Below are positions 14,213-32,000 of a stretch of 32,000 nucleotides of DNA, piece by piece. Both the position numbers and the translations under genes were made by a program. Within the stretch, counting starts at the first letter, position 1. Every line of letters begins with the position of its first letter. Source of the stretch: Candidatus Methylomirabilis limnetica (GTDB lineage Bacteria; Methylomirabilota; Methylomirabilia; Methylomirabilales; Methylomirabilaceae); the NCBI RefSeq assembly GCF_003044035.1, contig NZ_NVQC01000017.1:1-32000 (forward strand), read 5' to 3'. Below the pieces are notes generated by a model. That model worked only from the letters and a program-made list of their open reading frames with translations. It was not told the DNA's origin and made no database searches.

Positions 14213-14224
14213 GGCATCAGGATG

Positions 14225-14448
14225 GTAACTGCTCAGGTGTTTAGGCTGAAGGCTATAAAATATTATCTCGCAAGGCACGAATCAAGCTATTCAAGACCTT
14301 CTCGGTTTCTACGACCTTTGGTTCAAGCAGAGCTTAATCCTCGTTGGGCAAGAAGCCCAAATGCTTTGACAGATTTAGTTGATAGCGCAGTTACCTCTGA
14401 TTACCCCTAAAAGCCTTCAGCCTTCAGCCTATCTACCTGAGTAGTTAC
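14225..14448 (-). mobile_element. TIR element with four-helix-bundle gene remnant, copy C
   Basis: It starts GTAACTGCTCAGGTGTTTAGGCTGAAGGCT and ends AGCCTTCAGCCTTCAGCCTATCTACCTGAGTAGTTAC. The interior keeps ..LLAQRGL.. and ..EGLE*LDSCLAR* remnants on the minus strand. A perfect 8-bp duplication TCAGGATG sits at 14217-14224 and 14449-14456. Confidence 0.85.
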
Positions 14449-14497
14449 TCAGGATGAACGTCGAAACGAAAGGATTGCGATTTACGATGGGAGGACG

Positions 14498-16131: not shown

Positions 16132-16617
16132 CTACCAGGAGATCCTCTCCGGATCTCCTTTATAGATAGACCGAATCCATGCAATGATCTTCCATACCTG
16201 CTCATCGCTGAGGATGGCCCCGAAGACCGCCGGCATGGTCTGTCCTGGATAGGTCCCCTTGGTAACCTTGAAGTAGGTCTCGTCGTCACCACCAAACTTC
16301 CAAGTATCACGTATGAATGCCGTAGCCCCAGCCATCGCGCCACCACCGCCTGAGCCATGGCAGCCTGGACAGCCGGACTGCAGATACAATTGACGCCCCT
16401 CTTTGATCGCGTCTGCGTTCCCGGTGAACGGGTTGAGCTTTTTTGGCTTCTGCGGATCAGCAGGTGCGGGGGCCTCTGATCCTTTCGGTTGTTGGCCGGA
16501 TTCTTCTATCTTCGCCGGCTCTTTCTGGGTCTGAGCCGTGAGACTCTGAACACATCCCAACATCACAAAGGTCAGGATTAACATAGCAAGAAGCGACTTC
16601 TTCTGTCTCATGGTCAC
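16132..16617 (-). CDS. xoxG: periplasmic c-type cytochrome (XoxG / cytochrome cL-like)
   Basis: 161 aa with a signal peptide and a single CPGCHG haem motif. It lies directly downstream of xoxJ. Confidence 0.75.
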   Translation of the reverse strand: MTMRQKKSLLAMLILTFVMLGCVQSLTAQTQKEPAKIEESGQQPKGSEAPAPADPQKPKKLNPFTGNADAIKEGRQLYLQSGCPGCHGSGGGGAMAGATAFIRDTWKFGGDDETYFKVTKGTYPGQTMPAVFGAILSDEQVWKIIAWIRSIYKGDPERISW

Positions 16618-16663: not shown

Positions 16664-17554
16664 TTAATAAGAGGGGAGGGGATCGTCCCGATCGAAGCTA
16701 CGGTAAAAGATCTCTCCCGGTTTCTCTTCCACCTTTGGAAATTGCTCGTGCGCCAGGAGTGGTAGAAGGGGCACACCATACTCCTCCAGAATCTTTCTGA
16801 TTTCGGCATGCCGTTTACTAATCGCCTGCTCAAGCTCAGCCTTGAGTGCCGTATTGCCTTCTTTCACCCCCATAGAAAACTCGAAGGTGAAAGGGATCCT
16901 CGGCTCCCCACCCTGAAGGAGGACTACCTCAAGAGGTGTCGATCCATTCAACCGTTTTGCAAAATAGCCAGCCATCGGCCCCCAATCCAATACGACATCG
17001 ATCTCGCCGGCAACAAGGTCCCGGATGATCTTGTCCGAACGCTCATTCTGGTCGCCATAATTGACGAGACTGTAGCCGACGAGATTTGTCCTGATATCCC
17101 TATTGGCCAATGCCTCCATGGGGGGGGAATTAATATAGACTCCGATCTTGAGACGCTTCAGGATCGGGTCATCTAGCGAGCTGATATGAAACCCCCGATC
17201 CTTGCGATAGACAAAGGCATACGCCGAACGGTAATAGGGCTTGGTCCAGAGAACCCGATCCCAACCCTGAGGGATCGAGATCATGACATCACAGAGTCCC
17301 GGTTTCAACGCTCTCCGAACTAACCCCTGCTGATGCGGCCACCAGAAATAGGTGAGTTCTATCTTCATTTCCTTGGCGATGACTTCGGCGATCTTGTTTT
17401 CAAAACCTTCTGATTGCTTGTTGGAGAATGGCAGGTTATTTGGATCGCCGCAGACACGGAGTGGGTTGACATGCCCCCCCCAGGCTTGCCAGGCAAAGGG
17501 AAACAGAATCATCACTACAACGAATCCGCTGAGAATGGCTGATCTTCGGCTCAT
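16664..17554 (-). CDS. xoxJ: MxaJ/XoxJ-type periplasmic solute-binding-like protein
   Basis: 296 aa. LRVCGDPNNLPFSN....GFENKIAE is typical of the quinoprotein-dehydrogenase-associated SBP. It is positioned between xoxF and the cytochrome gene. Confidence 0.8.
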   Translation of the reverse strand: MSRRSAILSGFVVVMILFPFAWQAWGGHVNPLRVCGDPNNLPFSNKQSEGFENKIAEVIAKEMKIELTYFWWPHQQGLVRRALKPGLCDVMISIPQGWDRVLWTKPYYRSAYAFVYRKDRGFHISSLDDPILKRLKIGVYINSPPMEALANRDIRTNLVGYSLVNYGDQNERSDKIIRDLVAGEIDVVLDWGPMAGYFAKRLNGSTPLEVVLLQGGEPRIPFTFEFSMGVKEGNTALKAELEQAISKRHAEIRKILEEYGVPLLPLLAHEQFPKVEEKPGEIFYRSFDRDDPLPSY

Positions 17555-17650: not shown

Positions 17651-19483
17651 TTAGAGGCCGAAGACGTAGAGCGTCCCGCCCTTGGTTGTGGCCATGGGCA
17701 GACCTGACAAGTAGGCGGCATTCACCCCGCCCAATGCGGCGGTTGGATCGTCCGACGGAAGGTCGAGCGACACGGTGGCGCCAAACCACCCGCCAACGCC
17801 GGAGTATACGGCGACATACTGCTTGCCGTCAGGCCCCTTGTAGGTGATCGGATTACCGATGATCCCGGACCCCACCTTGTGCTTCCACAAAAGCTTCCCA
17901 TCTCGGGCATCGACCGCTTTGAACCAGCCGTCCATCGTACCATAGAAGACCACATTGGTAGAGGTCACCACGGGCCCACTCCATGGGGGCTGACTCTCTT
18001 TAATGGCCCACGCCCTTTTCCCTTTGACGACATCCCAGGCAATGAGATCTCCCCACCAGCCCTTGTCTTTACCTTCGTGGCCTTCGTACATCAGAACGGT
18101 GGCGCCCACGTACGGAGCCCCCGCCGTGTACTGAACCTTAACGCCTTCATAGCTCATACACATGTTGTTGACGGACGCGTAGAAGAGGTTCGTCACCGGG
18201 GAGTAGGCAGCAGGCAGGTAGTTCTTACCACCCATCGCGCAAGGGCAGATGTTCTTGGTGTCTTCACCCTGCTTAGTTAACTTGTCAGGGTTTACGATCG
18301 GCCGCCCCGTCTTCAGGTCGATCCCCTTCGCCCAGTTGACATAGACGAACGCATCGGCCCGGAGAAGTGTCCCGTCAGCGCGGTCAAGGGTGTATACAAA
18401 GCCGTTTCTGTCGAAATGAGTCAGAACCTTGCGCTTTTTGCCATCGATCGTCTGCTCGGTCAGGACGGATTCGTCGATCCCATCGTAGTCCCAGTTGTCC
18501 CACGGAGTCATCTGGTATGCCCACTTGGCCACCCCAGTGTCAGGATTGCGGGCCCATATGGTCATCGACCACTTGTTATCGCCGCCTTTCCGAGGGGCGG
18601 GGTTCCAGGTCCCGGGGTTACCGCTGCCGTAGTAGAACAGGTTCAGATCAGGATCGTATGCATAGTAGCCCCAAGTGGTGCCACCGCCCGTTTTCCACTC
18701 CTCGCCAGGCCAGCTCTTGGTCCCCTCGCCAAATCGTCCGTAATGCGGGTTGGCGGCGTTGAAGTCGGAGGCAAGCTTGAGATCCTCATCGGGCCCCACG
18801 CTGCGGGCCTTCCAGACCTGCTTGCCGGTGTTGATGTCGTAGGCCGCCACCCAGCCTCGGACTCCAAACTCACCACCGGCGACGCCGGCAATGTATTTAT
18901 CCTTAATCACCAGGCCGGCGGCGGTATTCGTCTCACCCTTGGAAGGGTCGGCATTCCGAGTCTTCCAGAGCTCCTTACCGGTCTTGGCATCGAGGGCAAT
19001 AACCATTCCATCGAGCGTTTGGTACAGGATCTTGCCGTTCCCATATTGGAGGCCCTTATGCACTAAGTCGCAGCAGGCGACCGGAACCGCCTTTGGATCG
19101 TGCTTGGCCACGTACTTCCACTTGATCGGCGCCCCTTCCTTGGTCAGATCGAGGGCAAAAATATTATGCGAGTTGCCCGTAGAATAGGAGCTATGGGCAT
19201 ACATCGTGTCGCCGACAACCAGCGGGCCTCCCTGTTGGCCGTTGAGTGTCCCCAGCGAGAACGACCACGCGACTTTAAGATTTTTCGCGTTCTCGGGCGT
19301 AATCTGGTTCAGGGTGCTGTAGCGGGTCCCTGCGTAGTCCTTGCTCTGCTGCGCCCATTGGCCATCGTCTTTCTGCAGCTTCAACACCTCGTCGTTGGCG
19401 TAGACCATAGGCGCCGCCACTACGAGACCCCCAGCCAGGATCAGTAGACCCCCGATCAGTGACGTACATCGTTTCACGCTCAT
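17651..19483 (-). CDS. xoxF: PQQ-dependent methanol/ethanol dehydrogenase, XoxF (lanthanide) type
   Basis: 610 aa with a signal peptide. Contains NDEVLKLQKDDGQWAQQSKDYAGTRYS, the vicinal Cys pair VACCD, and WDNWDYDGIDE, whose DYD is the extra Asp characteristic of XoxF (MxaF has DYA). Confidence 0.9.
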   Translation of the reverse strand: MSVKRCTSLIGGLLILAGGLVVAAPMVYANDEVLKLQKDDGQWAQQSKDYAGTRYSTLNQITPENAKNLKVAWSFSLGTLNGQQGGPLVVGDTMYAHSSYSTGNSHNIFALDLTKEGAPIKWKYVAKHDPKAVPVACCDLVHKGLQYGNGKILYQTLDGMVIALDAKTGKELWKTRNADPSKGETNTAAGLVIKDKYIAGVAGGEFGVRGWVAAYDINTGKQVWKARSVGPDEDLKLASDFNAANPHYGRFGEGTKSWPGEEWKTGGGTTWGYYAYDPDLNLFYYGSGNPGTWNPAPRKGGDNKWSMTIWARNPDTGVAKWAYQMTPWDNWDYDGIDESVLTEQTIDGKKRKVLTHFDRNGFVYTLDRADGTLLRADAFVYVNWAKGIDLKTGRPIVNPDKLTKQGEDTKNICPCAMGGKNYLPAAYSPVTNLFYASVNNMCMSYEGVKVQYTAGAPYVGATVLMYEGHEGKDKGWWGDLIAWDVVKGKRAWAIKESQPPWSGPVVTSTNVVFYGTMDGWFKAVDARDGKLLWKHKVGSGIIGNPITYKGPDGKQYVAVYSGVGGWFGATVSLDLPSDDPTAALGGVNAAYLSGLPMATTKGGTLYVFGL

Positions 19484-19682
19484 TGAATACCTCCCTCTTT
19501 ATGCGATCCTGTTGCTTCCCAGGAAATCATATCTCACTTCTCTCTAATGCCCCGATTGCCCCTACTTCACTTACGCCGCCTTTTCAGGAATTGCGATCCA
19601 CGCGTTCATCCAAGCAAAGATGCAGAGCGGCCGCTCTCCTCCTTTCTTTTGCCTAGCCTCTTCACGATTGGGTAAATCACTC

Positions 19683-19864
19683 GTAACTACTCAGGTGTTT
19701 AGGCTGTAGGCTGAAGGCTGTTAGTCGTTGCGCATGGACCGAATCAAGGCGCCCAGAACCTTTTCGGTCTCCATCATGTTCGCGTCGCATTCAGAAAACG
19801 CCTGGTTCATCCGTGCGCGTTCCTGCAGGCTAAAAGCCTACAGCCTATCTACCTAAGTAGTTAC
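19683..19864 (-). mobile_element. TIR element with four-helix-bundle gene remnant, copy D
   Basis: 182 bp: GTAACTACTCAGGTGTTTAGGCTGTAGG...CCTACAGCCTATCTACCTAAGTAGTTAC. The minus-strand interior reads MNQAFSECDANMMETEKVLGALIRSMRND*. A perfect 8-bp duplication AATCACTC sits at 19675-19682 and 19865-19872. Confidence 0.9.
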
Positions 19865-19894
19865 AATCACTCAACGCTCCGTAATGCGGACATC

Positions 19895-22054
19895 TTACCG
19901 GGTGAAAGAAAACACGCTAATAATACCACGTGACCCGTCCTGCAGATATGCGACGACACCCTTTTCTTTAACAGCCGATAGCACAATCAGGTTCTTCCTG
20001 CCGGTACCGTTCAGATCGGCCAAGGCAACGTCACGCACCTTCCCCTCAAGAGGGATCGTCTCCCACCCCCGCGCAAAGGTTCCTTCTTGACGGTCAAACG
20101 CCACAACCCGGCTAGGCAGGGACGACTCGACACGAAAAAGCCCAATCTTTTTCGGATTGGTAAAGGTCAGAAGCTCTGTCTTGGCGTTACCCCACAGGGG
20201 CGAGGTCTCGACAAGGATTCGCCGCGGCAGGATCTCCCGAATTGCGTGCTCTTCAGGAGTAATCAGGCCCGACTTGAGCCCGTCTCTAGCCAGGAGAGCC
20301 CGGTGCGTGGGGATGTGGGAAAAGGCAAGGTGATCGACCTCGCCCAGGTCATCTTTGCCTTCCCATGACGGCTTGCCCTCGCTCCCGTAGGCCTTGACCC
20401 GTTGCTCGCTAATAACAGCAACCTCTGATATCTGATCGCCGGTGGCATTGATCGGCGCAAATTCGTAGAGATTCTTCACCTGGACCGGAAGGATGAGTGG
20501 CTGCCCTTCGACATACCGCTCGCCATTCCAGGACAGTCGGATGATCGGCCCTTCAAAAGCAGTCAGTTCCCCCATCCGCTGACCGACCAGGATAGGCGTC
20601 TCAATACCAGGCCCCATGACCACGCGAAGGAAGTAGCCCAGCTTATCGGCAATTCGGACGAGCTTACTACCTTGAAGTTCCAGGACAAACGAGTGAAGCT
20701 CGTTCCGAGCACCGGACAGGGCCGTGATAACGACCTGGGCATGACTGCGGCCATTAATATTGCCGACATCAACATGCAAGTGGCGAATAGACCGGGGACT
20801 GCCAATCCTGGCAATCGGCGCCAGTCGTTGATTCTGCCACCGATAGACAATCACCTCAGAGGAGGTTATCCCAACGATCTCTGGCCGTTGATCCCCATCC
20901 AGATCTCCCGCTGCCAGTGCAAGAAGCGGATCGGGCAACTCGAATACGACAGACTCTTGCAAACCCTTATTATTATCGGAACGCGCCGGTTCGGCCTCAG
21001 CCACAGTCAGGAATGAAGGGGCCCCGGGCTTTCGCAACGCCTCTTCGGCAACCACACCCTTACGGGAAGAGGCTATCTCTGAAGAGGGACCTTTCATCTG
21101 CTCGGCAGTTCTCGAAGGCTCAGAACTTTGACGCTCCGCGTGGACGAAAGAGGGTCGTGACGCTGCTGAGGGGGCATGCCCTGAGCCAGGTCGGAGGGCC
21201 GGACCAGACGGTGGCGAGGGGGCGGCCACAACCATCGGTCCACGTTCCGCGATCTCGACGCTCGCAACAGTCAACGGCGCTCCGGTAACGACTGACATGA
21301 CCTGCAGATTCAAGAACAGGCCCTGATGACCAGGACTGAGTTTGCCCAAAACGAGGAGCTGAACGTGCGCCTTCTCCGCCAACAGTTTCAGGGTGGAGGG
21401 ATCGCCTAATGATTCCACCCGCGAGGAATGCTCCCCCGCCAGCGCGGCCCTGAGGAGCGGATCCTCGATTACGATAAAGCGGCCGGTCTTGGCTAGCGCA
21501 ATGGCCAGATCTTTCGTGACCGAATGGGCATTCGCTTCCTTGATCCCGCCGGTATTGATGAGTGGAAGGCCAACCAATAGACGGTCTGAACCTACCCGGA
21601 CCAAATCACTGGCCCTGATGGTAGACCCCTCCTCTCTGGAGACAATGGCCGCCTCCGAGAATTTCTCTTTCACATCAACGACTCTGAGGAGGCCCAGCCT
21701 TTTGTCCCGCCTTCCCAAGATCTCGCCAGTCACGGGGTGTTTGACTTCATCTCCTGCCCGATAGACCTGCAGTTCCATCCCCTGGTACACCTTATTGGCC
21801 CCCAGGTCGATCAGGACCCGGTCCCTCTCGACTCCTGTCACTGACCCTTGGACGACTGGAAAGGCTTCAGCGAGTTTAGCGGCAGCCTCCTCAGCAGCTT
21901 GACCAAAGGCCGGCTCCAGAGCGCGAGCTTGAGAGGCAATGATCGGGATAAAAAGGGTAACGACGAGACAAAGGCAAACCAGCCCGCGCCAGACACATGG
22001 AGGAGCAACTCTGACCGTTTTCGTATTCTTCACAAGGTGAGTGAAAACCTTCAT
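19895..22054 (-). CDS. secreted/anchored FG-GAP/VCBS-repeat protein with an N-terminal LpoB/CsgG-like domain and a Pro/Ser/Ala linker
   Basis: The start is taken at MKVFTHLV...LVCLCLVVTLFIPIIASQARA (22054). The ORF-track start at 22264 reads through repeat copy E. Contains GDLDGDQRPEIVG and ADLNGTGRKNLIV (FG-GAP Ca-loop-like) and a low-complexity linker about 100 aa long. Confidence 0.65.
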   Translation of the reverse strand: MKVFTHLVKNTKTVRVAPPCVWRGLVCLCLVVTLFIPIIASQARALEPAFGQAAEEAAAKLAEAFPVVQGSVTGVERDRVLIDLGANKVYQGMELQVYRAGDEVKHPVTGEILGRRDKRLGLLRVVDVKEKFSEAAIVSREEGSTIRASDLVRVGSDRLLVGLPLINTGGIKEANAHSVTKDLAIALAKTGRFIVIEDPLLRAALAGEHSSRVESLGDPSTLKLLAEKAHVQLLVLGKLSPGHQGLFLNLQVMSVVTGAPLTVASVEIAERGPMVVAAPSPPSGPALRPGSGHAPSAASRPSFVHAERQSSEPSRTAEQMKGPSSEIASSRKGVVAEEALRKPGAPSFLTVAEAEPARSDNNKGLQESVVFELPDPLLALAAGDLDGDQRPEIVGITSSEVIVYRWQNQRLAPIARIGSPRSIRHLHVDVGNINGRSHAQVVITALSGARNELHSFVLELQGSKLVRIADKLGYFLRVVMGPGIETPILVGQRMGELTAFEGPIIRLSWNGERYVEGQPLILPVQVKNLYEFAPINATGDQISEVAVISEQRVKAYGSEGKPSWEGKDDLGEVDHLAFSHIPTHRALLARDGLKSGLITPEEHAIREILPRRILVETSPLWGNAKTELLTFTNPKKIGLFRVESSLPSRVVAFDRQEGTFARGWETIPLEGKVRDVALADLNGTGRKNLIVLSAVKEKGVVAYLQDGSRGIISVFSFTR

Positions 22055-22156
22055 GCCATTGAACGCGATCAGCACCGGCTCGATTGTATCGATGAGAAAC
22101 CATGCACGCCTCTCACGCCCAGGAGAGCCAACCCATTCAGAAACGCTGTTTGATGC

Positions 22157-22338
22157 GTAACTACTTAGGTGTTTAGGCTGAAGGCTGAAGGCTGTTAGCC
22201 ATTGCGCATGGACCGAATCAAGGCGCCCAGAACCTTTTCGGTCTCCATCATGTTCGCGTCGCATTCTGAAAACGCCTGGCTCATCCGTGCGCGTTCCTAC
22301 AGTCTAAAAGCCTATAGTCTATCTACCTGAGTAGTTAC
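22157..22338 (-). mobile_element. TIR element with four-helix-bundle gene remnant, copy E
   Basis: 182 bp and about 94% identical to copy D. A perfect 8-bp duplication TTTGATGC sits at 22149-22156 and 22339-22346. Confidence 0.9.
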
Positions 22339-22426
22339 TTTGATGCAACGGCATTTTACACCTCATTCGCGCCAATCTGTCAAGTAATTTTTCTCTCGAA
22401 TATATGCCGTCTTGAGAGGTTGAGCG

Positions 22427-23662
22427 TTACGGGATCTTAGGCATCAGCAGGCGCGGCGGGCTGTCCGCTCGCTTTTCGCCGACCAGTTCCTTACCCACGA
22501 CCTTCCCTCCTGCAAAGCGATACCGGACATGAACCTTGCCATTGTAATCGGTGTCCTCTTCCTGAAGCACCTTTTCACCCGTCTCATTATAGGAGACCCA
22601 GACGTCCGGTCGGCCGTCCCCGTTGGTGTCATACTCTTCTTTGGCAAGGCGACCACTCCCAAAGAAGCGAACTAGGTCATACCGCCCCTCGTATTTGGTA
22701 TCAACCTCCTGCCGTTGAATCTCTTCCTCGCGAAAGAAGGTGACGACATCCATCTTCCCCTGCCGCCTGGTATCCTGCTGTCGCTTGACCGGCTTACCGC
22801 TCTCGTACCAGTCGATCAGATCGAGCCGGCCGGCTCCCTGCGTGTCCTCTTCTCGTCGGAAAAGGATGCCTACCTGGAAAAAGTAGGCGACGTTCGGCCG
22901 GCCTTGACCAAGAGTATCCTCCTCTTGCTTGACGATCTGTCCGTTCTCATAGTAGGCCCAGACGTCAGGTCGCCCGGAACCCTTTCGGTCGGCCTCGCGC
23001 CGGATCAGGCGCTCGTCCTTGTCGTAATACGACCAGCGGTCGATCCGCCCCGATCCTTTCGTATCCTCCTCGCGCCGCACGAGTTTTCCTTCCTGGTAAT
23101 AAGAAAAGAACGTTGGGCGAGCGACTCCCTTCTTATCCTCCTCATCCCTGATGAGCACGCCGGCAGCATCATAATACGACCAGAGGGTGATCTTTCCATC
23201 GCGTTTCACCGATTCCTCGGCCCGAACCGCCTTCCCCTTTTCGTAGAAGATGAATCGATCGACTCGCCCATCGGCATCCAGGTCCTGTTCTGCCTTCATC
23301 GGGATTCCCTGGTGATAACTAATCCGGATATCGAACTTCCCATCGCCGTTGTTATCTTTTTCCGTCCTCTCCACCTGACGATCTGTAGACAGGTGGTGCC
23401 ATGTGTCGGGTTTACCGTCTTTATTCGTGTCTACTGCCTGGAGGATCGGGTGTCCATCCCGGTAGGTGATCCAGGCATCGATACGCCCGGAGCCGGCGCT
23501 ATCAACCTCCTCCCGGATGACCTCCCCATTCTCGTCATAGAAATACTTACTCTTCGGCTCGGCTCCTCCTGCAGGAGGAGCGAAAAAGACGAGAAGGGAA
23601 AGGGCGAGGGGAAAGGACAAGGATATGGAGAACAATCTCGCAATGTGTAAGATAGTCGTCAC
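22427..23662 (-). CDS. secreted tandem-repeat protein, 14 x 24-25 aa units with D-x-[DN]-x-[DG]-G-[RK]-x-D loops
   Basis: GTG start. Signal peptide LFSISLSFPLALSLLVFFAPPAGGA. The repeat units include DTNKDGKPDTWHHL.., DNNGDGKFDIRISY.., DLDADGRVDRFIFY.., DTKGSGRIDRWSYY.. and DTNGDGRPDVWVSY... The gene starts 13 nt after the tonB stop. Confidence 0.75.
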   Translation of the reverse strand: MTTILHIARLFSISLSFPLALSLLVFFAPPAGGAEPKSKYFYDENGEVIREEVDSAGSGRIDAWITYRDGHPILQAVDTNKDGKPDTWHHLSTDRQVERTEKDNNGDGKFDIRISYHQGIPMKAEQDLDADGRVDRFIFYEKGKAVRAEESVKRDGKITLWSYYDAAGVLIRDEEDKKGVARPTFFSYYQEGKLVRREEDTKGSGRIDRWSYYDKDERLIRREADRKGSGRPDVWAYYENGQIVKQEEDTLGQGRPNVAYFFQVGILFRREEDTQGAGRLDLIDWYESGKPVKRQQDTRRQGKMDVVTFFREEEIQRQEVDTKYEGRYDLVRFFGSGRLAKEEYDTNGDGRPDVWVSYNETGEKVLQEEDTDYNGKVHVRYRFAGGKVVGKELVGEKRADSPPRLLMPKIP

Positions 23663-23675
23663 GCCCTATCCCATA

Positions 23676-24698
23676 TCAGTTAAGCGCGAACTTTACCGGA
23701 AGCAGCACCCAGCTTTCCACCGGCTTCCCACCCTTTTTGGCAGGAAGAAACGCCCACCCCTTAACCGAATCTACCGCCTCCCGATCAAGGATCTCATAGC
23801 CCGAGGATCGATCAATAGTAAGTTGCCCCACGCGACCATCCGCCCGAACCAAGACACGCAGGTAGACCGTTCCTTCGTAACCTTTTTCCCGTGCCAAAGG
23901 AGGGTACCTGGGAAGCGGATTGATCCCGTAGTTCGGGGCCGCGTATCCACCTCCAGCAGCTCCACTACCTGTCCGGCCAGATCCTCCGCCTGTACCGCCG
24001 CCCTGGGGAGAACCAACAGTCACTGTCGGTGTCAGTGGCGCGGTCAACGCTGCGTCGAGCCGGCCCGCTCCACCCCGGCTTGCTGAGCCGGAGCCGCCTA
24101 CGCCATCCCCGTCAGGACCGAGCAGAACCGGCCCCGGCGACAAGCTAACTGCTGTAGAGGATCCCGGTGTGCCAACGTCCACTGCGCGTGACCCACTCCC
24201 CGACATACCAACGGCCTTTGGCCCGCCGATCCGCTCATCCAACGTCGTAGGCTCCACCACCTCAGCCGCCCGAGCAGGTGAAGACGCCGCAAGAACAGGA
24301 GACGGAGGCGAAACGCGAGGTTGAGCCATCGCTTTCGAGTTGACAGGAGGAACCGCCTTCCCTGGGGCGGCTGCTTGCCTCGTGCGAGTGCGGTCAGGGT
24401 GTCCCGATGGAGCGGATGGCTCGGAATTCTCACTTCCAATGAGGGTTACGACAAGGGGCCGCGGAGCTGATGGAGCCGTGAGAAGCCCAAAACTGATGAT
24501 AACCCAAGCCAGAATCAGGTGGAAACCGGTGGAACTCAGGAGAAATCGGCCCAACGAAAGCGGTCTGGCCTGCGATCCAACCAGAAACGTCATGACAGGA
24601 TGGATCGCATCGGGGGCCCGGTCAACCTCAGTACGGCCTCCTTGACGTCCAAGCGCGAAACTATCCTTTGGAGACATAAAACAATTATAGCGGATCAT
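23676..24698 (-). CDS. tonB: TonB-family energy transducer
   Basis: C-terminal TonB domain: YPPLAREKGYEGTVYLRVLVRADGRVGQLTIDRSSGYEILDREAVDSVKGWAFLPAKKGGKPV. There is one TM segment (FHLILAWVIISFGLL) and a Gly/Pro/Ser/Ala-rich spacer. The start is uncertain: ATGs lie at 24698, 24677 and 24593, none with a good RBS. The ORF-track start at 24851 lies inside repeat copy F. Confidence 0.8.
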   Translation of the reverse strand: MIRYNCFMSPKDSFALGRQGGRTEVDRAPDAIHPVMTFLVGSQARPLSLGRFLLSSTGFHLILAWVIISFGLLTAPSAPRPLVVTLIGSENSEPSAPSGHPDRTRTRQAAAPGKAVPPVNSKAMAQPRVSPPSPVLAASSPARAAEVVEPTTLDERIGGPKAVGMSGSGSRAVDVGTPGSSTAVSLSPGPVLLGPDGDGVGGSGSASRGGAGRLDAALTAPLTPTVTVGSPQGGGTGGGSGRTGSGAAGGGYAAPNYGINPLPRYPPLAREKGYEGTVYLRVLVRADGRVGQLTIDRSSGYEILDREAVDSVKGWAFLPAKKGGKPVESWVLLPVKFALN

Positions 24699-24743
24699 TA
24701 CGAAGCGAGCGAAGAGTTTTTTCTTACATACGGTCCTGTGATC

Positions 24744-24925
24744 GTAACTCCTCAGGTGTTTAGGCTGTAGACTGAAGGCTGTTAGTCGTTGCGCATGGAC
24801 CGAATCAAGGTGCCCAGAACCTTTTCGGTCTCCATCGTTTTCGCGTCGCATTCAGAAAACGCCTGGCTCATCTGTGCGCGTTCCTACAGTCTAAAAACCT
24901 ACAGTCTATCTACCTGAGTTGTTAC
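24744..24925 (-). mobile_element. TIR element with four-helix-bundle gene remnant, copy F
   Basis: 182 bp. The flanks CTGTGATC (24736-24743) and CTGTAATC (24926-24933) match at 7 of 8 positions. It begins 8 nt after the receptor stop. Confidence 0.9.
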
Positions 24926-24933
24926 CTGTAATC

Positions 24934-27171
24934 TTAGAATCGGTAACTGGCGCCGACCAAGACGTTGATCGGCGGCGCAGGATTCAAAAACCGCTCGATA
25001 GGCTCCCCGGGGACCTTAGCATTTGGGGCGAAGGTCCCAAAGGTCTCATAGCGGTTGTTTGTCAGATTGTTGATCTTTACGAACCCGTTTAACCGCTTCC
25101 AGTGGAGATCGAGGCCGGTACTCAAGATAATATAGTCGTCGAGCTTCGACTGGGTGTTCGCCTCGTCGCCACGCAAGAACTGCGAGCTCACATAGGTCAG
25201 GTCCAGAGAGAGGCTCAGCCATCTATAGAGATGGTAGCGGAGACCGGCATTTACACGATGGTTCGGTATTAAGGGGAGTTGATCCCCCTTGGCCACTTGC
25301 TGAGGGACGCCTGGCGTTCGAGGCGAGCCCAGCTCGATGTTATCCTGGAAGGTTCCGCGGGTGAATGTGTAATTCACGTAGGGCTCCAGAAGGTTTCTGT
25401 AGATCCCGCGCAGGCCGGCCTCCAACCCCTGGCGCCTGGTGTTACCGATGTTCTGGAAGAAGACGGTCAGCTCGGCCGGATCGGAGACAGAGAAGATGTC
25501 ATCGCGCACATCGGTCCGGTAGAGCGCCAGGCTCCCCTCCAGCCAGGGCAAGGGGCGCGCCCGGAAACCCACCTCGTAGTTGTGGGCCCTGACGGGACTA
25601 AGCTTCAAGAAGCCGGTGTCGGGCGCCACACCTGCCTGCAGGCCGACGCATGGCGAATCGGGCTTGCCACAGGTCAGCTCCAGGAAAGCCGGGACTCGCC
25701 ACCCCTGGGAGTATGAAAAATAGAACCCGTAGCTGTCGGAGAGATTGTAGTTGATGCCGGCCCTGGGGTTCACGCGGCTATAGGAGGCCCTCCCCGTCGC
25801 CTTGCCCGGCTCTTCTGGGCTCGAGTCGGTAATATCGTGCCTGACGTAATCAACCCGGAGCGCCCCCGTCAAGAACAGATTGTCACTGGACAGTAGCAGG
25901 CCACGCCCAAGCTCGGCGGTGTCCTGGATGTACGCCCCGACGGTATCCTGCTTGTCGGAGAGAACGGAGGTAAGCTGCTTCTCCGGGCATTCCTCATCCG
26001 GATTCTTCCCCGCGGCGAGCGCCTCCTCTCGGCATTGCTGACGAGACCGATCATTCTGCTCCTCGGAAACCCGGATGTCTACATCGTGACGGGTGTATTC
26101 GGTCCCGATGGTCAGCAGATTCTTGCGCCCCCAGAATCGGCCTTCGTGCGTGAGCTGGAGCGTGCCACCGCCGGAGAAGGTATCATTAAAGAGGCGTGAG
26201 TTCTCGCTGATCAGGCTCGCGTTGAACTGCTCGGTGTCCAGCTTCCTGACGAATCCGTTGAGGGCAAAGGTAAAGCCCCCGCCGAGGCGTTGACTGGCAT
26301 TCAGAGTCCCCATATGGAGATTCGGGTTGAAGAAATCGCCCCCGGTGAAGTTCTGCGTCCGATCGACCTTCAGGACGCTCTCGGGCAACGTGCCTGGTTG
26401 CAGAATCCTATTATTCTGAAACTGGTACGAAAGGGTGATGTCAGTGCCGCCTTGACGGAAACCGAGCTTCCCAAAGGCTTGCGAAAGGCGGCTGTCGGAC
26501 TGAACTCTCCAACCGTCCTCATCGAACTGACTTCCGGCGACGTAGTAGTCGAATGGTCCGGCAGTTCCACTCATGTACCCCCGCCCCTTCCGGCGCCCGA
26601 AGCTGCCACCTGAACCTTCAACGACCATCTCTCGCTCGGCTGTACCCCGCTTCGTAATGATATTCAGGGAACCGGCCAGGGTGTTCCGGCCGAAGATAGC
26701 CGTTGGTCCACGAATCAACTCGATCCGTTCGACATCATCGAGCGGGATGAGGTCGAAATTGATCTCTTCGACGGTCGGCTCGTTGACCCTGACCCCATCC
26801 ACGAACACGCTGATTCCCTGAGGGACGCCAGTGACCGAGGTACCCGAAAAGCCTCTAAAGGAGAGATCGAACTGATAGGCGTTGCCCTGTTGATCGTTCA
26901 GATGGACCCCCGGAAGCTGCTGCATGACGTCCTGGAGGTTCAGCGCACCCGAGCGTTTGATCTCCTCGGCCGTAATAACCTGAACGCTAGCCGGAACTTC
27001 GGCGAGCGAGAGCGGGACCTCTGGAAGGCGGGCCGGCGCAGTCACGAGGATCTCTGGAAGCGGGGTGATCTCCAGAGGCACTCCAGATTCCTGGGCATGC
27101 ACGCCATTGGCCCACCAACTGATCATCAATCCCGCCAGCGCTCCGATCGCCTGAGTCCGAGCTCCCTGCAT
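24934..27171 (-). CDS. TonB-dependent outer-membrane receptor
   Basis: 745 aa with a signal peptide. Plug-domain motifs are VQVITAEEIKRSGALNLQDVMQQLPGV and FDLSFRGF. A beta-barrel follows, ending in the terminal ...GASYRF. Confidence 0.9.
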   Translation of the reverse strand: MQGARTQAIGALAGLMISWWANGVHAQESGVPLEITPLPEILVTAPARLPEVPLSLAEVPASVQVITAEEIKRSGALNLQDVMQQLPGVHLNDQQGNAYQFDLSFRGFSGTSVTGVPQGISVFVDGVRVNEPTVEEINFDLIPLDDVERIELIRGPTAIFGRNTLAGSLNIITKRGTAEREMVVEGSGGSFGRRKGRGYMSGTAGPFDYYVAGSQFDEDGWRVQSDSRLSQAFGKLGFRQGGTDITLSYQFQNNRILQPGTLPESVLKVDRTQNFTGGDFFNPNLHMGTLNASQRLGGGFTFALNGFVRKLDTEQFNASLISENSRLFNDTFSGGGTLQLTHEGRFWGRKNLLTIGTEYTRHDVDIRVSEEQNDRSRQQCREEALAAGKNPDEECPEKQLTSVLSDKQDTVGAYIQDTAELGRGLLLSSDNLFLTGALRVDYVRHDITDSSPEEPGKATGRASYSRVNPRAGINYNLSDSYGFYFSYSQGWRVPAFLELTCGKPDSPCVGLQAGVAPDTGFLKLSPVRAHNYEVGFRARPLPWLEGSLALYRTDVRDDIFSVSDPAELTVFFQNIGNTRRQGLEAGLRGIYRNLLEPYVNYTFTRGTFQDNIELGSPRTPGVPQQVAKGDQLPLIPNHRVNAGLRYHLYRWLSLSLDLTYVSSQFLRGDEANTQSKLDDYIILSTGLDLHWKRLNGFVKINNLTNNRYETFGTFAPNAKVPGEPIERFLNPAPPINVLVGASYRF

Positions 27172-27439: not shown

Positions 27440-27850
27440 TCAGGCGGCGAGAGCTACTTCGAGCGACTGCGTCAATTCGGGCGCGGCGCGCCGGAGCGTC
27501 GCATCTTCCGTGACGAGCTTTACCCCCAGTTCCCGAGCCGCCACGAGGAAACGAGCGTCGTAGACTGACACCTTGTAGGTCATCGCGACAACCAAGGCTT
27601 GATGGTGGCTGACAACGGTCAACCCTGGGCTCAGGAATACCTCGGCCTCATTGAGCCGCGCAAGCGCCTCACCCTCGCTGGTTAGCCCCATACGCGCGTA
27701 GGTCGCCATAACGTTCGCGAACTCTATCAGCGCGAAGGACTCCGTGCGCCAATCCCAATCTTTTTCCAGCAGCCGGCGCGCCGCATGCGTCCAGGCATTC
27801 TCGACCCACAATGAGATCGCGATGTTGGTATCGATCAACACCATCGTCAA
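27440..27850 (-). CDS. vapC: PIN-domain toxin VapC
   Basis: MTMVLIDTNIAISL..., YDARFLVAA and VTED provide the conserved acidic residues of a PIN domain. The gene starts 6 nt after the antitoxin stop. Confidence 0.85.
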   Translation of the reverse strand: MTMVLIDTNIAISLWVENAWTHAARRLLEKDWDWRTESFALIEFANVMATYARMGLTSEGEALARLNEAEVFLSPGLTVVSHHQALVVAMTYKVSVYDARFLVAARELGVKLVTEDATLRRAAPELTQSLEVALAA

Positions 27851-27856
27851 TAACGC

Positions 27857-28090
27857 TCAGTCACGCCCTTCGGCGATGGCGGCTTCGATGTCTTCAATGG
27901 TCGGACGGTCTCCACTCGCCAGCTTCAGCGGCGGTGACAGCTTTGGTGGCTGGCGGGGCGCCGCGAGTACGGACTCGATGAGGCTCACCACCTCTTTGGT
28001 GACGGAGCGATGGTGGCGCTGTGCCTGCGCCTTCAAGCGCACGTGCAGTTTTTCGGGGAAGTTCTTGATCACCAGCGTGCTCATGGACAA
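27857..28090 (-). CDS. vapB: ribbon-helix-helix (Arc/FitA-like) antitoxin VapB
   Basis: 77 aa. The N-terminus MSMSTLVIKNFPEKLHVRLKAQAQRHHRSVTKEVVSLIE has a beta-strand plus two-helix RHH pattern. It sits upstream of the PIN gene. Confidence 0.8.
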   Translation of the reverse strand: MSMSTLVIKNFPEKLHVRLKAQAQRHHRSVTKEVVSLIESVLAAPRQPPKLSPPLKLASGDRPTIEDIEAAIAEGRD

Positions 28091-28344: not shown

Positions 28345-29766
28345 CTACAAAATGGCCGGGCGGGTAATCCCATGTTTCTGGATGCGATAACGGAGCGCTT
28401 CTCTACCGATGCTCAATTTTCTGGCAGCTTCCGCGACATTGCCGTCCGTCAGGTCCAACGCCTGCTTGATCAATTGTCGCTCAACCTCATCCAAATCGAT
28501 ACCCTGTTCTGGAAACTGTATCTGAAACGTCTCATCGGCGCCGGGTGGGTGATTTCGCCTTTGGCTTGCAACGACAGGGGACGTGGCGTCCATGCTAAGA
28601 GCCGAGGGACCGATCTCTTGCTCATCGCAGACCAAAAGCGCCCGCTCTACCAAGTGGACGAGTTCTCGAACATTGCCAGGCCAGCGGTACGCTCTGAGGG
28701 CTTGGAGGGCGGCCTCTGTGAACCGTCTTACAGGAAGCGAATACTTATGGGTCAGTTGCTTGAGAAAGTGGTTCGCCAGCAAGACCACATCTTCGCCGCG
28801 CTCCCGCAACGGCGGCAGTTCCACGGTGAGGACCTTCAGGCGATAGTAGAGATCTGGTCGGAAGGCGCCGACCTTCACAGCCGCCTCGAGGTCGCGGTTG
28901 GTGGCCGCAATAATACGAACATTGATTTTTCGCTCCCGAAGGCTGCCCAACCGGCGAATCTGCCTTCGCTCGATCGCCTTCAACAGCTTCGCCTGAAGCT
29001 CTGGACTCAGCTCGCCGACCTCGTCCAGAAAGAGCGTCCCGCCGTCGGCCGCCTCGATCAGGCCAGGCTTCGCAGCAGTGGCGCCTGTGAACGCGCCCTT
29101 CTCGTACCCAAACAGCTCCGCTTCTGCGAGATCCTTTGGGATCGACGTACATTCAATCTCGACAAACGGCTGCCCGGCAAGGCTTCCTCGGCGATGGATT
29201 GCCCGTGCCACGAGGTCCTTCCCCGTCCCGGTCTCGCCCAGCAGCAACACCGTCGGCAGCTCGCCCGCAGGCCTGGGTTCGAGGTGAGCGATCCGTCCGA
29301 TCATCTCTATGACCTGCGTCATCCCGGCAGAGACGCCAATGATCTCGCCATGAGCGGCCTGCTGGACCTCCTTGCGTTGGAAGTAAGAGAGGCGTTCTCT
29401 CAGGCGATGCGTCTCCAATGCTTTCTCGATGATAAATGTCAACTCATCGTGATCGATCGGCTTCTGGATGTAGTCGTATGCCCCATCCTTCATCGCGGCC
29501 ACAGCGCTCTCGACGCTGCTGTACGCAGTCATGATGATGACGATGATGCTCCCGTCGAGGCTCAAGATCTTCCTTAGCGCGTCGAGCCCACTCATACCGG
29601 CCAGCTTGATATCCAGCAGGATCAGATCGGGCCGATCCGTCTCGATCGATATCATCCCCTCCTCTGCGCTCGACAGACTTCTGCACTCATGGCCATTTCT
29701 GCTGAGGGTGTGCGCCACGGAGCGAGCAAACACGACCTCGTCATCAATGACCAGTATCTTAGCCAT
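28345..29766 (-). CDS. sigma54-dependent response regulator (NtrC family)
   Basis: Receiver domain MAKILVIDDE...DLILLD. AAA+ domain with GETGTGKD, the GAFTGA loop and ELFLDE-like LFLDEVGEL. C-terminal Fis-type HTH GNVAEAARKLSIGREALRYRIQKHGI. The start at 29766 overlaps the kinase stop by 8 nt. The ORF-track start at 29823 is less likely. Confidence 0.9.
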   Translation of the reverse strand: MAKILVIDDEVVFARSVAHTLSRNGHECRSLSSAEEGMISIETDRPDLILLDIKLAGMSGLDALRKILSLDGSIIVIIMTAYSSVESAVAAMKDGAYDYIQKPIDHDELTFIIEKALETHRLRERLSYFQRKEVQQAAHGEIIGVSAGMTQVIEMIGRIAHLEPRPAGELPTVLLLGETGTGKDLVARAIHRRGSLAGQPFVEIECTSIPKDLAEAELFGYEKGAFTGATAAKPGLIEAADGGTLFLDEVGELSPELQAKLLKAIERRQIRRLGSLRERKINVRIIAATNRDLEAAVKVGAFRPDLYYRLKVLTVELPPLRERGEDVVLLANHFLKQLTHKYSLPVRRFTEAALQALRAYRWPGNVRELVHLVERALLVCDEQEIGPSALSMDATSPVVASQRRNHPPGADETFQIQFPEQGIDLDEVERQLIKQALDLTDGNVAEAARKLSIGREALRYRIQKHGITRPAIL

Positions 29767-31237
29767 TGCGACCGGCTCCTGTAGGATAGGTAATCGGAAG
29801 CAGAACCTGTACTGCAGTCCCACCCTCTGTGCGGTTCGACACGGTAAGGCTTCCCCCGTGAGCGCTGATAAACTTCCGGGCCATTGTCAGGCCAAGGCCC
29901 ACGCCGTCGCTCTTCGTGGTAAAGTACGGGGTGAACACCTTCTGGAGTATGTCGGGGGGGATTCCCTCGCCATTGTCAGCGAACTCAATAGCGATGCCGC
30001 CTGGCCCCTCACCTTCGTGGATCAGCCGGGAGGTAATCACAATGTTCCCCTTTCGGGGGGTCGCTTCGCACGCGTTAGCGAGTAGGGCAACGAGGGCCTG
30101 TTCCAGATAGCCCTCATCAAGGGGGACAAGCGGCAATGTTGGGGATGGGATCAAGTCAAGCGTGATCTGCTTCCCCTCGATCATCGGGCGAACCACATCA
30201 ACCGCCTGCATGACCACTCGGTTCAGATCGAAAGGGATCAAGGTTGGCGTAATCGGTTTCAAGGCAAAGAGAAAGTTGTACGCCCATTGGTTCAAGCGAT
30301 CAACGCTTTCCACAATGCTCTGAAGCGTAAGCCGAACCTCTGCGGACTGCTCCGATCCCTTGAGGGCTGCCTGAGCGGCAGACCGGATGCTCGCCAATGG
30401 GTTACGGATATTGTGGGCAATACAGGAAGAGAGCTCGCCGGCCGCCGCCAATCGTTCGGCTTGAAGCAAGCGTTCCTGAATCCCCTTAAGCGACTGGGCC
30501 ATGCGATTGATCGAGGCCGCCAGATCGCCTAATTCATCTTGGAACGTGACCTGGACACGATGATCCAACTCTCCGGTACTGATGATCGCGGTCGAGCGAC
30601 CGATCGCCCGAAGAGGCTTTACCAGCCACCGGTGAATTCCGAACAGCAGCCCGCTGCCCCACGCGAGGGCGAGTAGCACGACGACTCCGGCCAGCAGTTC
30701 TCCCTGAGTCGCGACGGCGCGGGTCCGTTGCATCGACTGCTGTGCGGCTGCGTCATAATAGGCCCGCAGCCGGTCAATCTGTTCGTCTTGCCGCAGGAAC
30801 GCCACTTGCTCCAGTTCCCGCTCGACCCGCTGTATGGCCCGCTCCCGAACGCCTTTCTCGAGAAGTTCAAAAATCTCCCTCACAAGCTGTGTAACCTGTC
30901 GATGCGCCGTCTCGAGCGCGTGAATCCGCTCCTCCTCCGCCCTCGACTGGGAATGCTTCCGGAGGTCAGCCAACTCCCCCTCCACCGTCACCCCCAGGTT
31001 CTCGAACTCCCCCCGTGCGGACCGATCCCCACTCACAAACCGGTCGAGGATCTCCTTGATCTGCCGATACAAATCCCCCCGCAGCCGCTCGGCCCTCAGA
31101 CTCTGCGCGTGGGAGTAGGTGAGATCCCTTACTCCCGCCTCCCATCCTCGCAGAGCCCAGACCATGACGAGCCCGATGCAGACCACCAGGGTAAAGATGA
31201 CCAGATACCCGATGCGGAGCTTTGTGCGGATCAGCAT
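29759..31237 (-). CDS. sensor histidine kinase (two TM, helical periplasmic domain, HAMP, HisKA, HATPase)
   Basis: TM1 is IGYLVIFTLVVCIGLVMVWAL, followed by an Arg/Glu-rich helical sensor of about 150 aa, then TM2 LLAGVVVLLALAWGSGLLFGI. The HAMP region contains DELGDLAASINRM, the H-box is SCIAHNIRNPLASI, and the G-boxes are DNGEGIP and GVGLGL. Confidence 0.9.
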   Translation of the reverse strand: MLIRTKLRIGYLVIFTLVVCIGLVMVWALRGWEAGVRDLTYSHAQSLRAERLRGDLYRQIKEILDRFVSGDRSARGEFENLGVTVEGELADLRKHSQSRAEEERIHALETAHRQVTQLVREIFELLEKGVRERAIQRVERELEQVAFLRQDEQIDRLRAYYDAAAQQSMQRTRAVATQGELLAGVVVLLALAWGSGLLFGIHRWLVKPLRAIGRSTAIISTGELDHRVQVTFQDELGDLAASINRMAQSLKGIQERLLQAERLAAAGELSSCIAHNIRNPLASIRSAAQAALKGSEQSAEVRLTLQSIVESVDRLNQWAYNFLFALKPITPTLIPFDLNRVVMQAVDVVRPMIEGKQITLDLIPSPTLPLVPLDEGYLEQALVALLANACEATPRKGNIVITSRLIHEGEGPGGIAIEFADNGEGIPPDILQKVFTPYFTTKSDGVGLGLTMARKFISAHGGSLTVSNRTEGGTAVQVLLPITYPTGAGRNG

Positions 31238-31356: not shown

Positions 31357-32000
31357 TCAGAACCGTACTCTGACGCCGCCATGTACGAGCAGCGGAGTAC
31401 CGGTGGTGACGATGCCATCGGCCGTCCTGCTGACCTCGTACGTCCTATCGAAGAGGTTCTCTGCCGCCAGGAAGAGTTCTCCTGCGGTCGCCCCTGGAAC
31501 GGGGATCGGTCGCGAGAGCATGAGGTCCACCACAAAGAAGTCGCCGAGCTTCAGTGAGTTGAGGTCGTCCTCAAATTGATCCCCGACAAACCGCCCCTGG
31601 ACGGAGACGTTGATGAGGGCAGGGTTGGTGTAATTCAGCTTCAAGGCAAACTGATGCCTCGGAACCTGGGCGATTCTTTTTCCCTCCAGATCCGGCTGGT
31701 TCGGGGCGCTCAAGACCTCAGTATGGTTATAAAGATAACTGCCTGAGGCGGTCCAGCGCGGAAGCGGACGATATTCCAGTTCGGCCTCGATCCCCCTGAT
31801 CCGTGTCCGGTCCAGGTTGTCCCGCTGTCGGCAGACGCCTCCGGCCGGAACGAAGCCGCAAGGAGCAACGGGGGCCCCCGCACCGATCCCCTTGGTGACG
31901 TTGACAACAGGATCCTTCACCTCGTTCCAAAAAGCAGTCAGCCGACCGAGAAGGTTGCTCATAATGGCATAGTCGGCCCCGACCTCTCCCCCGATTAGCC
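31357..32000 (-). CDS. TonB-dependent receptor, C-terminal part (continues beyond right edge)
   Basis: It ends ...TTGTPLLVHGGVRVRF* with the terminal aromatic residue. The frame stays open upstream of the ORF-track Met (LIGGEVGADYAIMSNLLG...) to position 32000. The sequence has a beta-barrel-like alternating pattern. Confidence 0.8.
   Translation of the reverse strand, partial: LIGGEVGADYAIMSNLLGRLTAFWNEVKDPVVNVTKGIGAGAPVAPCGFVPAGGVCRQRDNLDRTRIRGIEAELEYRPLPRWTASGSYLYNHTEVLSAPNQPDLEGKRIAQVPRHQFALKLNYTNPALINVSVQGRFVGDQFEDDLNSLKLGDFFVVDLMLSRPIPVPGATAGELFLAAENLFDRTYEVSRTADGIVTTGTPLLVHGGVRVRF

Follow-up and report, generated by a model that had tools for sequence, protein, structure and literature searches.

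The first 32,000 nucleotides of contig NZ_NVQC01000017.1 of Candidatus Methylomirabilis limnetica, here called the window, carry on their reverse strand a gene for an exported repeat protein, REP, which lies between a TonB-like gene and the genes of a XoxF-type methanol dehydrogenase system (Table 1). The TonB-like gene ends with a TGA stop codon at 23676-23678, and the GTG start codon of REP follows 13 nt further. A sequence-only reading of this locus had described a secreted protein built almost entirely of 14 tandem units of 24-25 aa with four full DxDxDG-type loops, close-coupled to tonB and two genes upstream of a lanthanide (Ln)-type xoxF, and had nominated it as a candidate Ca/Ln binding or shuttling protein of a new architecture. 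The anatomy and setting so described are borne out here, including each of the four loops as quoted, and the link to tonB proves to be a signal of the whole family. Comparison of REP relatives shows that the conserved partner is Ton-type machinery, chiefly a TonB-like gene, and neither xoxF nor a particular cargo.

Anatomy and predicted fold of REP

Orthologues of REP with 75-89% identity were found in five Candidatus Methylomirabilis/Methylomirabilota (NC10) metagenome-assembled genomes (MAGs) in a scan that took one genome per species. Comparison of REP with two NC10 orthologues gives a dN/dS of 0.19-0.20, and thus, judged from substitution patterns, REP is a real gene, expressed as protein and under purifying selection. 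Its N-terminal hydrophobic segment ends in FFAPPAGGA, followed by EP. In a 17-sequence alignment of the REP1 clade, the branch of the family that includes the window protein, each of the other 16 proteins has an AXA-like site at the corresponding position, and residues 1-31 of REP have a pLDDT below 50 in the AlphaFold2 (AF2) model. The signal peptide recognizable in the sequence and this conserved site together show REP to be an exported protein, as first proposed. There is no Cys anywhere in the translated REP sequence and hence no lipobox, which rules out REP as a lipoprotein.

The signal peptide is followed by a half unit (residues 36-53) and by 14 units starting at residues 54, 78, 103, 127, 152, 176, 200, 225, 249, 273, 297, 321, 345, and 370, with a within-protein consensus of DT.G.GR.D.....Y...G..V..EE. 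The BLOSUM62 autocorrelation of the protein has maxima at lags of 24, 49, and 73, and the lag-24 value of 0.79 compares with a maximum of -0.35 in shuffled sequences (z = 23.5, 1000 shuffles), in agreement with the repeat architecture described earlier. Tandem Repeats Finder (TRF) found no tandem repeat at the DNA level; the units are therefore ancient and diverged. Mature REP is an acidic protein (pI 5.4) of high charge, D+E accounting for 76 of its 378 residues, and its short conserved C-terminal tail could possibly act as a docking peptide.

An AF2 model built with a 101-sequence alignment (pTM 0.66; pLDDT 78 overall and above 95 for residues 190-320 and 340-395) contains beta strands only and no helix of four or more residues; a single-sequence AF2 run gave a poor model (pLDDT 58). 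Each unit is modeled as one hairpin, composed of a strand of the form x-W-x-Y-Y, a Gly turn, and a strand of the form x-l-v-R-x-E-E, with the D..G.GR.D segment forming a 9-residue loop between successive hairpins. The sequence-only reading had left open whether structure prediction would yield a propeller or a solenoid. The propeller did not stand up: none was present in the model or among the 50 Foldseek matches listed, the units recur every 24 aa, and the predicted chain is an all-beta succession of hairpins. The best Foldseek matches in the PDB (E-values as low as 2.6e-9) were Rhs/YD-repeat shells, teneurins, and Tc-toxin BC components, with the single-layer sheets of OspA coming next. Their TM-scores of 0.1-0.4 indicate that the likeness is that of a hairpin-after-hairpin sheet and not of the overall shape.

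The best of these structural matches, the Rhs/YD shells (Rhs effectors, Tc toxin BC, and teneurin; E = 2.6e-9 to 1e-6, probability about 1), share with REP a run of hairpins in a continuous sheet, and the REP motif YYDxxGxL.R recalls the YD repeat. Unlike Rhs proteins, REP lacks the Rhs core, plug, and toxin domain, its TM-scores to them are 0.1-0.2, and its 14 hairpins are too few for a closed cocoon. The RHS_repeat model matches only one of the 17 REP1-clade members (E = 0.006). REP as an Rhs toxin shell can be rejected, since its 411 aa include no core or toxin region and the Foldseek likeness is local.

Profile searches place REP close to, and outside of, several known repeat families. No Pfam model matched REP above its cut-off, with FG-GAP_3, MORN_2, DUF6802, and EF-hand_5 all sub-threshold. 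FG-GAP_3 scored 18.2 bits against a cut-off of 26.9 and FG-GAP 15.8 against 22.1, and the FG-GAP_3 match covers only the first 16 positions of the model, which correspond to the loop. The pattern D-x-[DN]-x-D-G-x-x-D is common to four REP loops and to FG-GAP/VCBS propellers, thrombospondin type-3 repeats, and dockerins, but REP has one hairpin every 24 aa in place of FG-GAP blades of about 60 aa. An EF-hand assignment likewise fails: EF-hand_5 scored 12.6 bits against 25.9, the model contains no helices, each loop is followed by a strand, and loop position 12 is W, Y, F, or I, not E. The analogy to lanmodulin (LanM) drawn in the sequence-only reading finds no support in this result. MORN_2 (PF07661) scored 16.2 bits for the window protein and 27.5 for the best clade member, against a cut-off of 29.6, with matches at E <= 0.01 in 10 of the 17 clade members. 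Like REP, MORN_2/YwqK proteins (PF07661, COG2849) have units of about 22-24 aa that form one hairpin with strand-1 aromatics and a Gly turn. MORN_2 units lack the 9-residue DxDxDG-type loop between hairpins, and YwqK is a cytoplasmic antitoxin whereas REP is exported and Ton-linked. By sequence the two are probably related repeat types, with REP forming a sister family rather than belonging to MORN_2. The best curated match was the NCBIfam Lsa25.6 adhesin model NF050087, at 56 bits (E = 3.8e-15) against a cut-off of 150. A search of PDB sequences with REP alone gave nothing meaningful (best E = 0.16), and one with the 17-sequence REP profile gave no match at E <= 1. This is in keeping with the new architecture suggested earlier, there being neither a Pfam model above cut-off nor a sequence relative of solved structure. 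No description of the REP family or of its Ton linkage was found in the literature searched, the coverage of which was incomplete.

Gene neighborhoods of the REP family

TonB systems, with TonB, ExbB, and ExbD at their core, power the import of nutrients across the outer membrane, and to our knowledge few accessory proteins of these systems have been described. A search of 1.84 billion cluster representatives returned 2825 REP relatives at E <= 1e-3, 749 at E <= 1e-10, and 38 at E <= 1e-30. Relatives retrieved by a word-index search were mostly unnamed, with a few labeled "antitoxin YwqK" by JGI; named sources included Binatia, Vicinamibacteria, "Deltaproteobacteria" MAGs, and Polyangiaceae. 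Gene neighborhoods were examined around eight homologue matches and in 55 metagenome loci seeded by the peptide pattern DTNGDG[RK]xD. Loci were scanned with a hand-built two-unit alignment, and neighbors were labeled by phmmer on all stop-to-stop open reading frames (ORFs) with ExbB, ExbD, the TonB C-terminal domain, TonB-dependent receptor (TBDR), XoxF, and the FG-GAP protein as queries. Relatives at E < 1e-25 were taken as strong; the weak matches are short proteins with few DxDxDG units.

REP genes were found beside genes for TonB/TolA-like proteins and ExbB/ExbD in different lineages and in several gene orders. In NC10 (type I), the order is TBDR-TonB-REP, as in the window. The type II order, confirmed with Pfam, is REP1 (about 410 aa), REP2 (about 378 aa), a TonB_2/TolA-like protein (341 aa), MotA/ExbB, and ExbD (L017, L018, L020, L022, L026, and L027), with truncated copies in L001, L015, L019, L021, and L023. 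In type III loci (L025, L028, L029, and L033), ExbD and ExbB are encoded on one strand, and the opposite strand carries TonB and then a REP of about 1000 aa; in L031, the TonB-REP pair stands alone. In type IV, REP-ExbB-ExbD-TonB lies downstream of a TBDR, sometimes with an ABC importer (L002, L003, and L005; no TBDR was detected in L003). Type V comprises TBDR-TonB-REP (L044), TonB-REP-TBDR (L042), and TonB-REP (L016). In a Candidatus Binatia MAG (L069), REP1-REP2 adjoins a convergent ExbD-ExbB pair.

Of the 28 informative loci with strong matches, 16 have a Ton gene within 3 kb (with short contigs added, 19 of 32), and in eight Ton-negative strong loci the contig ends at REP on the side where intact relatives have their Ton genes. 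Weak matches in the same scan have a Ton gene in only 1 of 19 loci (Fisher p = 4e-4 versus strong matches). TBDR genes are found close to REP in L002, L005, L040, L042, L044, and NC10. Local tblastn matches between the window receptor and those of L002 and L005 show only 24-33% identity, and the linkers of the TonB proteins beside REP are rich in Pro or in Gly, depending on the locus. Because the receptors and TonB proteins are of differing subtypes, the common denominator is the Ton machinery and not a particular cargo. With the XoxF query, no PQQ dehydrogenase was detected near any non-NC10 REP homologue in the fetched loci, including that of Ca. Binatia. Of the co-occurrence suggested in the sequence-only reading, the association with TonB and its receptors is thus upheld, while that with xoxF holds inside NC10 only. 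The main interest of the family lies in this coupling to TonB/ExbBD, which is independent of gene order and recurs in several uncultured phyla.

The window protein is collinear with type II REP1, unit for unit and over its full length, at 35-41% identity, with type II proteins lacking unit 1 only. Residues specific to individual units are held in common: DRKGSGRPDVWAYYENGQIVKQEED in the window corresponds to DRKxNGKIDLWGYYxDGRLVKQEED in type II, and DTDYNGKVHVRYRFAGGKVV to DQKYQGKVTARYxFKGGQVV, and both proteins have an invariant Pro in a C-terminal PPR tail. On the strength of this collinearity, of the unit-specific residues, and of the tail, REP and type II REP1 are orthologues by sequence and not merely alike in their repeats, and the number and order of units are fixed within the clade, the units being non-interchangeable. 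In REP2 (about 378 aa), a predicted lipoprotein, a lipobox Cys and a Gly-zipper are accompanied by a region resembling a coiled coil and by six hairpin units of the REP type. Its gene (L020:5598-6734) follows REP1 directly and precedes TonB_2-ExbB-ExbD, with equivalents in L015, L017, L018, L021-L023, L026, L027, and L069. Proteins of the REP2 class made up most matches in the first homologue search, with Candidatus Binatia and "Deltaproteobacteria" MAGs contributing many. A protein with a VWA domain recurs beside ExbB-ExbD of REP1-REP2 loci, in a soil metagenome (L020:9035-10279, reverse strand) and in the Binatia MAG (L069:3509-4726, reverse strand).

Acidic loops and the possible role of REP

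The calcium-loop motif D-x-[DN]-x-[DN]-G-x-x-[DNE] is present in 4 of the 14 REP loops (starting at residues 78, 103, 127, and 345), three of which are kept throughout the REP1 clade. The remaining 10 have lost the ligand at position 3 and/or position 5, where K, S, Q, or A replaces D or N. Only loops 2 and 3 are canonical in NC10 and type II alike, loop 13 being nearly so. Relatives with no xoxF nearby retain canonical loops in 8 of 8 cases in L042, 11 of 12 in L016, 16 of 20 in L044, and 32 of 37 in L029, such that 80-100% of their loops have Ca-binding ligands versus the 4 of 14 in the window protein. The REP1 clade, the window protein included, is therefore a degenerate branch with 3-5 canonical loops, and an array of metal sites in REP is not supported. 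Several degenerate loops retain Lys or Arg at position 3 across phyla, pointing to a constraint other than metal binding. As the well-known DxDxDG motif is mostly canonical in the wider family, its members are probably Ca2+-binding hairpin arrays. The number of units ranges from 8 to about 40. The giant members in L029 (9546-12821), L025, L028, L031, and L024 have about 1000-1150 aa and about 37-40 units with nearly all loops of the canonical DxNxDG form; in four of these five loci they directly follow a Gly-rich TonB-like gene, and the contig of L024 begins inside REP.

Our favored interpretation, which we put forward tentatively, is that REP represents an uncharacterized family of Ca2+-stabilized, periplasmic structural accessories of TonB systems. 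REP would be exported by the Sec pathway as a soluble periplasmic protein, and its 14 hairpin units would stack into one long antiparallel sheet of the single-sheet type seen in YD, MORN, and OspA proteins. Up to four Ca2+ ions, bound at loops 2, 3, 4, and 13, could stiffen this sheet. As a structural accessory of a TonB-type energy-transducing envelope complex, REP may bind the TonB-like protein, or may brace or bridge its periplasm-spanning part towards a partner in the outer membrane. Its companion in most lineages would be REP2, the related lipoprotein. The TonB-REP pair of Methylomirabilis would serve the receptor encoded immediately upstream, which, judged by its position, may import a lanthanide or another cofactor for xoxFJG; REP would thus serve uptake only indirectly and would not itself be a lanthanide carrier.

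Several observations weigh against this interpretation. The NC10 cluster lacks REP2, the position after REP being taken by the FG-GAP protein, and ExbB and ExbD are not encoded in the window. The REP genes of L004, L006, and L030 and the gene for a REP2-type protein in L068 are not near Ton genes. A single peptide pattern was used to seed the metagenome sample, which is phylogenetically unbalanced, and several type II loci may come from related soil lineages. The proposed contact between REP and TonB is argued from gene context, and adjacency of genes says nothing of the part that REP would play within the system.

A more specific form of this proposal, which we regard as speculative and on balance unlikely in its full extent, is that REP1 and REP2 form a previously unrecognized structural part of a Ton/Tol-like machine (REP1-REP2-TonB_2-ExbB-ExbD) that occurs in uncultured phyla including NC10 and Binatota. 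Docking of REP1 on the C-terminal domain of the TonB/TolA-like protein would resemble that of TolB on TolA, and the Methylomirabilis pair would have been recruited to the receptor of the xoxF cluster. Known Ton/Tol accessories (TolB-Pal-CpoB and the TtpC of Vibrio TonB2) resemble the REP proteins in being periplasmic or lipoprotein partners whose genes share an operon with those for a TonB/TolA-like protein and a MotA/ExbB-ExbD/TolR motor, and the soluble REP1 and lipoprotein REP2 recall TolB and Pal by position, a likeness of gene context only. TolB is a propeller, Pal an OmpA-like protein, and TtpC an inner-membrane protein, and REP has no sequence or fold relationship to any of them.

Among the alternatives, a role for REP as a periplasmic Ca/Ln buffer or shuttle, taking Ln3+ from the receptor to XoxF by way of its acidic loops, would account for the place of the gene between TBDR-TonB and an Ln-type xoxF with its DYD motif, an order kept in seven NC10 loci. 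The four DxDxDG loops and the acidity of the mature protein fit this proposal, as does coordination chemistry, since Ca2+ sites generally bind Ln3+ more tightly than Ca2+. LanM and REP are both small, exported, acidic proteins of methylotrophs that have D-rich loops of similar composition and a lanthanide-related neighborhood. LanM, however, is a helical protein of four EF-hands, with 12-residue loops ending in Glu, while REP is modeled as all-beta, with no helix-loop-helix and no Glu at loop position 12, and its family tracks TonB and not xoxF. Non-NC10 homologues in the fetched loci have no PQQ dehydrogenase nearby, NC10 REP and the REP1 clade are the most degenerate of the family at the ligand positions, and their K/R position-3 loops are conserved across phyla. 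A protein holding many lanthanide ions would be expected to retain or multiply its ligand sets, and the version adjacent to xoxF has lost most of them, which argues against a shuttle while falling short of disproof. The lanthanide-binding interpretation draws on a lineage-specific neighborhood and four loops, which together do not appear to single out a dedicated Ln binder, and we consider it improbable. Proximity to xoxF and the presence of acidic loops are thus insufficient to nominate a lanthanide-binding protein.

REP might instead be a general periplasmic cargo partner of TBDRs, binding cationic metals or metallophores upon their release and working outside the motor. The receptor genes found near REP in five loci and in NC10 would agree with such a role, and Ca-type loops could bind cations. 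However, no receptor gene accompanies those for the motor and TonB in the type II and type III operons, a dedicated periplasmic binding protein and an ABC importer are already encoded in L002, and so wide a range in unit number is more natural for a spacer or scaffold than for a site with a defined ligand, leaving this a reading to which we give little weight. It is more doubtful still that REP is functionally unconnected with TonB, being a structural protein of the envelope or surface that depends on Ca2+ or an Lsa25.6-like adhesin, and that its Ton neighborhood is a sampling artefact: Lsa25.6 is the best curated match and some homologues have no Ton neighbors, but that score, far under the cut-off, reflects repeat similarity only (five matched stretches of a common repeat type), the Leptospira proteins are surface proteins of about 196 aa studied as host-binding adhesins to which REP is no equivalog, Ton neighbors occur in at least four independent gene orders with a significant contrast between strong and weak matches, and the REP sequence has no lipobox, known surface-export signal, autotransporter, or T1SS/T9SS-type terminus.

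If REP is indeed a structural accessory of TonB systems, it would add a component to the TonB machinery in phyla that cannot yet be grown, among them NC10, Binatota, and many lineages of soil metagenomes. The receptor-TonB-REP block upstream of the Methylomirabilis xoxF is in any case a concrete candidate for lanthanide uptake in anaerobic methanotrophs and, if REP was recruited to the xoxF receptor, would be part of a route distinct from the lut/LanM system of the Alphaproteobacteria.

The Methylomirabilis xoxF cluster and its intergenic repeats

Table 1. Coordinates of REP, its parts, and the neighboring genes in the window.
Feature	Position	Strand	Description	Basis
REP gene	22427..23662	(-)	411 aa, GTG start, stop codon within coordinates	ORF list, NC10 orthologues, dN/dS
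REP signal peptide	23561..23662	(-)	residues 1-34, MTTILHIARLFSISLSFPLALSLLVFFAPPAGGA followed by EP; predicted Sec/SPI type	read from sequence
REP repeat array	22484..23557	(-)	residues 36-393, half unit and 14 units of 24-25 aa, one beta-hairpin per unit	
REP loop 2	23405..23431	(-)	DTNKDGKPD, residues 78-86, canonical DxDxDG-type	D78, G83, D86 invariant in 17-sequence REP1-clade alignment
REP loop 3	23330..23356	(-)	DNNGDGKFD, residues 103-111, canonical	D103, D107, G108, D111 invariant in REP1-clade alignment
REP loop 4	23258..23284	(-)	DLDADGRVD, residues 127-135, canonical in NC10 only	type II relatives have ASKNDGxxD here
REP loop 13	22604..22630	(-)	DTNGDGRPD, residues 345-353, canonical	D345, T346, N347, D349, D353, W355 invariant in REP1-clade alignment
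REP C-terminal tail	22430..22483	(-)	residues 394-411, 18 residues, conserved PPR motif, P402 invariant	alignments
TonB-like gene	23676..24677	(-)	TM helix, long Gly/Ser/Pro-rich linker, TonB_C	Pfam TonB_C 80.7 bits, NCBIfam tonB_Cterm
TonB-dependent receptor	24934..27171	(-)	Plug and 22-strand barrel family	Pfam Plug, TonB_dep_Rec_b-barrel
FG-GAP protein	19895..22054	(-)	exported multidomain FG-GAP/VCBS protein, about 719 aa	Pfam FG-GAP_3 41.4 bits; synteny
XoxF-type PQQ methanol dehydrogenase	17651..19483	(-)	Ln-type DYD	Pfam PQQ 181.9 bits; WDYDG at residues 336-340
XoxJ-like protein	16664..17554	(-)	periplasmic binding-protein homologue	Pfam SBP_bac_3; synteny
XoxG-like protein	16132..16617	(-)	c-type cytochrome	Pfam Cytochrom_C; synteny

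The order TBDR-TonB-REP-FG-GAP protein-xoxF-xoxJ-cytochrome c is kept in seven NC10 loci wherever the contig reaches far enough, two further NC10-like loci from metagenomes (L013 and L014) adding to the five MAGs. The dehydrogenase belongs with the lanthanide-dependent XoxF enzymes, for which the second Asp of the DYD motif is an established marker. NCBIfam matches of the window receptor are generic, of siderophore type, and below their cut-offs. The FG-GAP protein has weak FlgT_C and LpoB-like matches in its N-terminal part, a Pro/Ser-rich linker, and a C-terminal FG-GAP/VCBS region. In NC10 its gene invariably comes after REP, and no other lineage was found to have it; in other phyla this slot is filled by the REP2 lipoprotein. 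A complete NC10-type block of TonB-REP-FG-GAP-xoxF-xoxJ-cytochrome c, with 76-88% protein identity to the window, is also present on a contig labeled "Patescibacteria group bacterium" (L008, DATMXF010000214.1), which on sequence grounds is probably a mis-binned Methylomirabilota contig.

Upstream of the receptor lie genes for a sigma-54-dependent response regulator and a HAMP histidine kinase (28345-31237, reverse strand), which may regulate the cluster, and the C-terminal part of a second TBDR (31357-31962, reverse strand), which continues beyond the window. A small two-gene pair located between receptor and response regulator, at 27440-28090 on the reverse strand, by appearance consists of a 136-aa PIN/VapC toxin-like ORF and a 77-aa antitoxin-like ORF; the former is 89% identical to an ORF at the same place in the NC10 MAG L010.

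The window also contains six copies of an intergenic repeat element of roughly 165-235 nt (1475-1645, 12972-13137, 14216-14450, 19682-19876, 22156-22350, and 24743-24937). Three of the copies, each of 195 nt and with 89-92% identity, belong to the xoxF cluster. The element ends in 24-nt terminal inverted repeats, GTAACTACTCAGGTGTTTAGGCTG ... CAGCCTATCTACCTGAGTAGTTAC, and its terminal pattern has 11 matches in the window versus 0 expected and none in 69 other fetched loci; Rfam had no match anywhere in the window. The corresponding intergenic gaps in L010 are about 190 nt shorter. The element looks like a strain-specific insertion resembling a miniature inverted-repeat transposable element (MITE), parting all genes of the cluster except the tonB-REP pair.

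These elements also bear on gene starts. The TonB ORF as listed extends to 24851 and that of the FG-GAP protein to 22264, and both open with near-identical 35 residues, MRRE[NH]DGDRKGSG... (24678-24851 and 22055-22264, reverse strand), because both read through the repeat element. Orthologues of the two ORFs align only from about residue 24-57, those of TonB from about residue 37-43. The likely start of TonB is M59 of its listed ORF, and by these alignments the true starts are probably near 24677 for TonB and 22054 for the FG-GAP protein.

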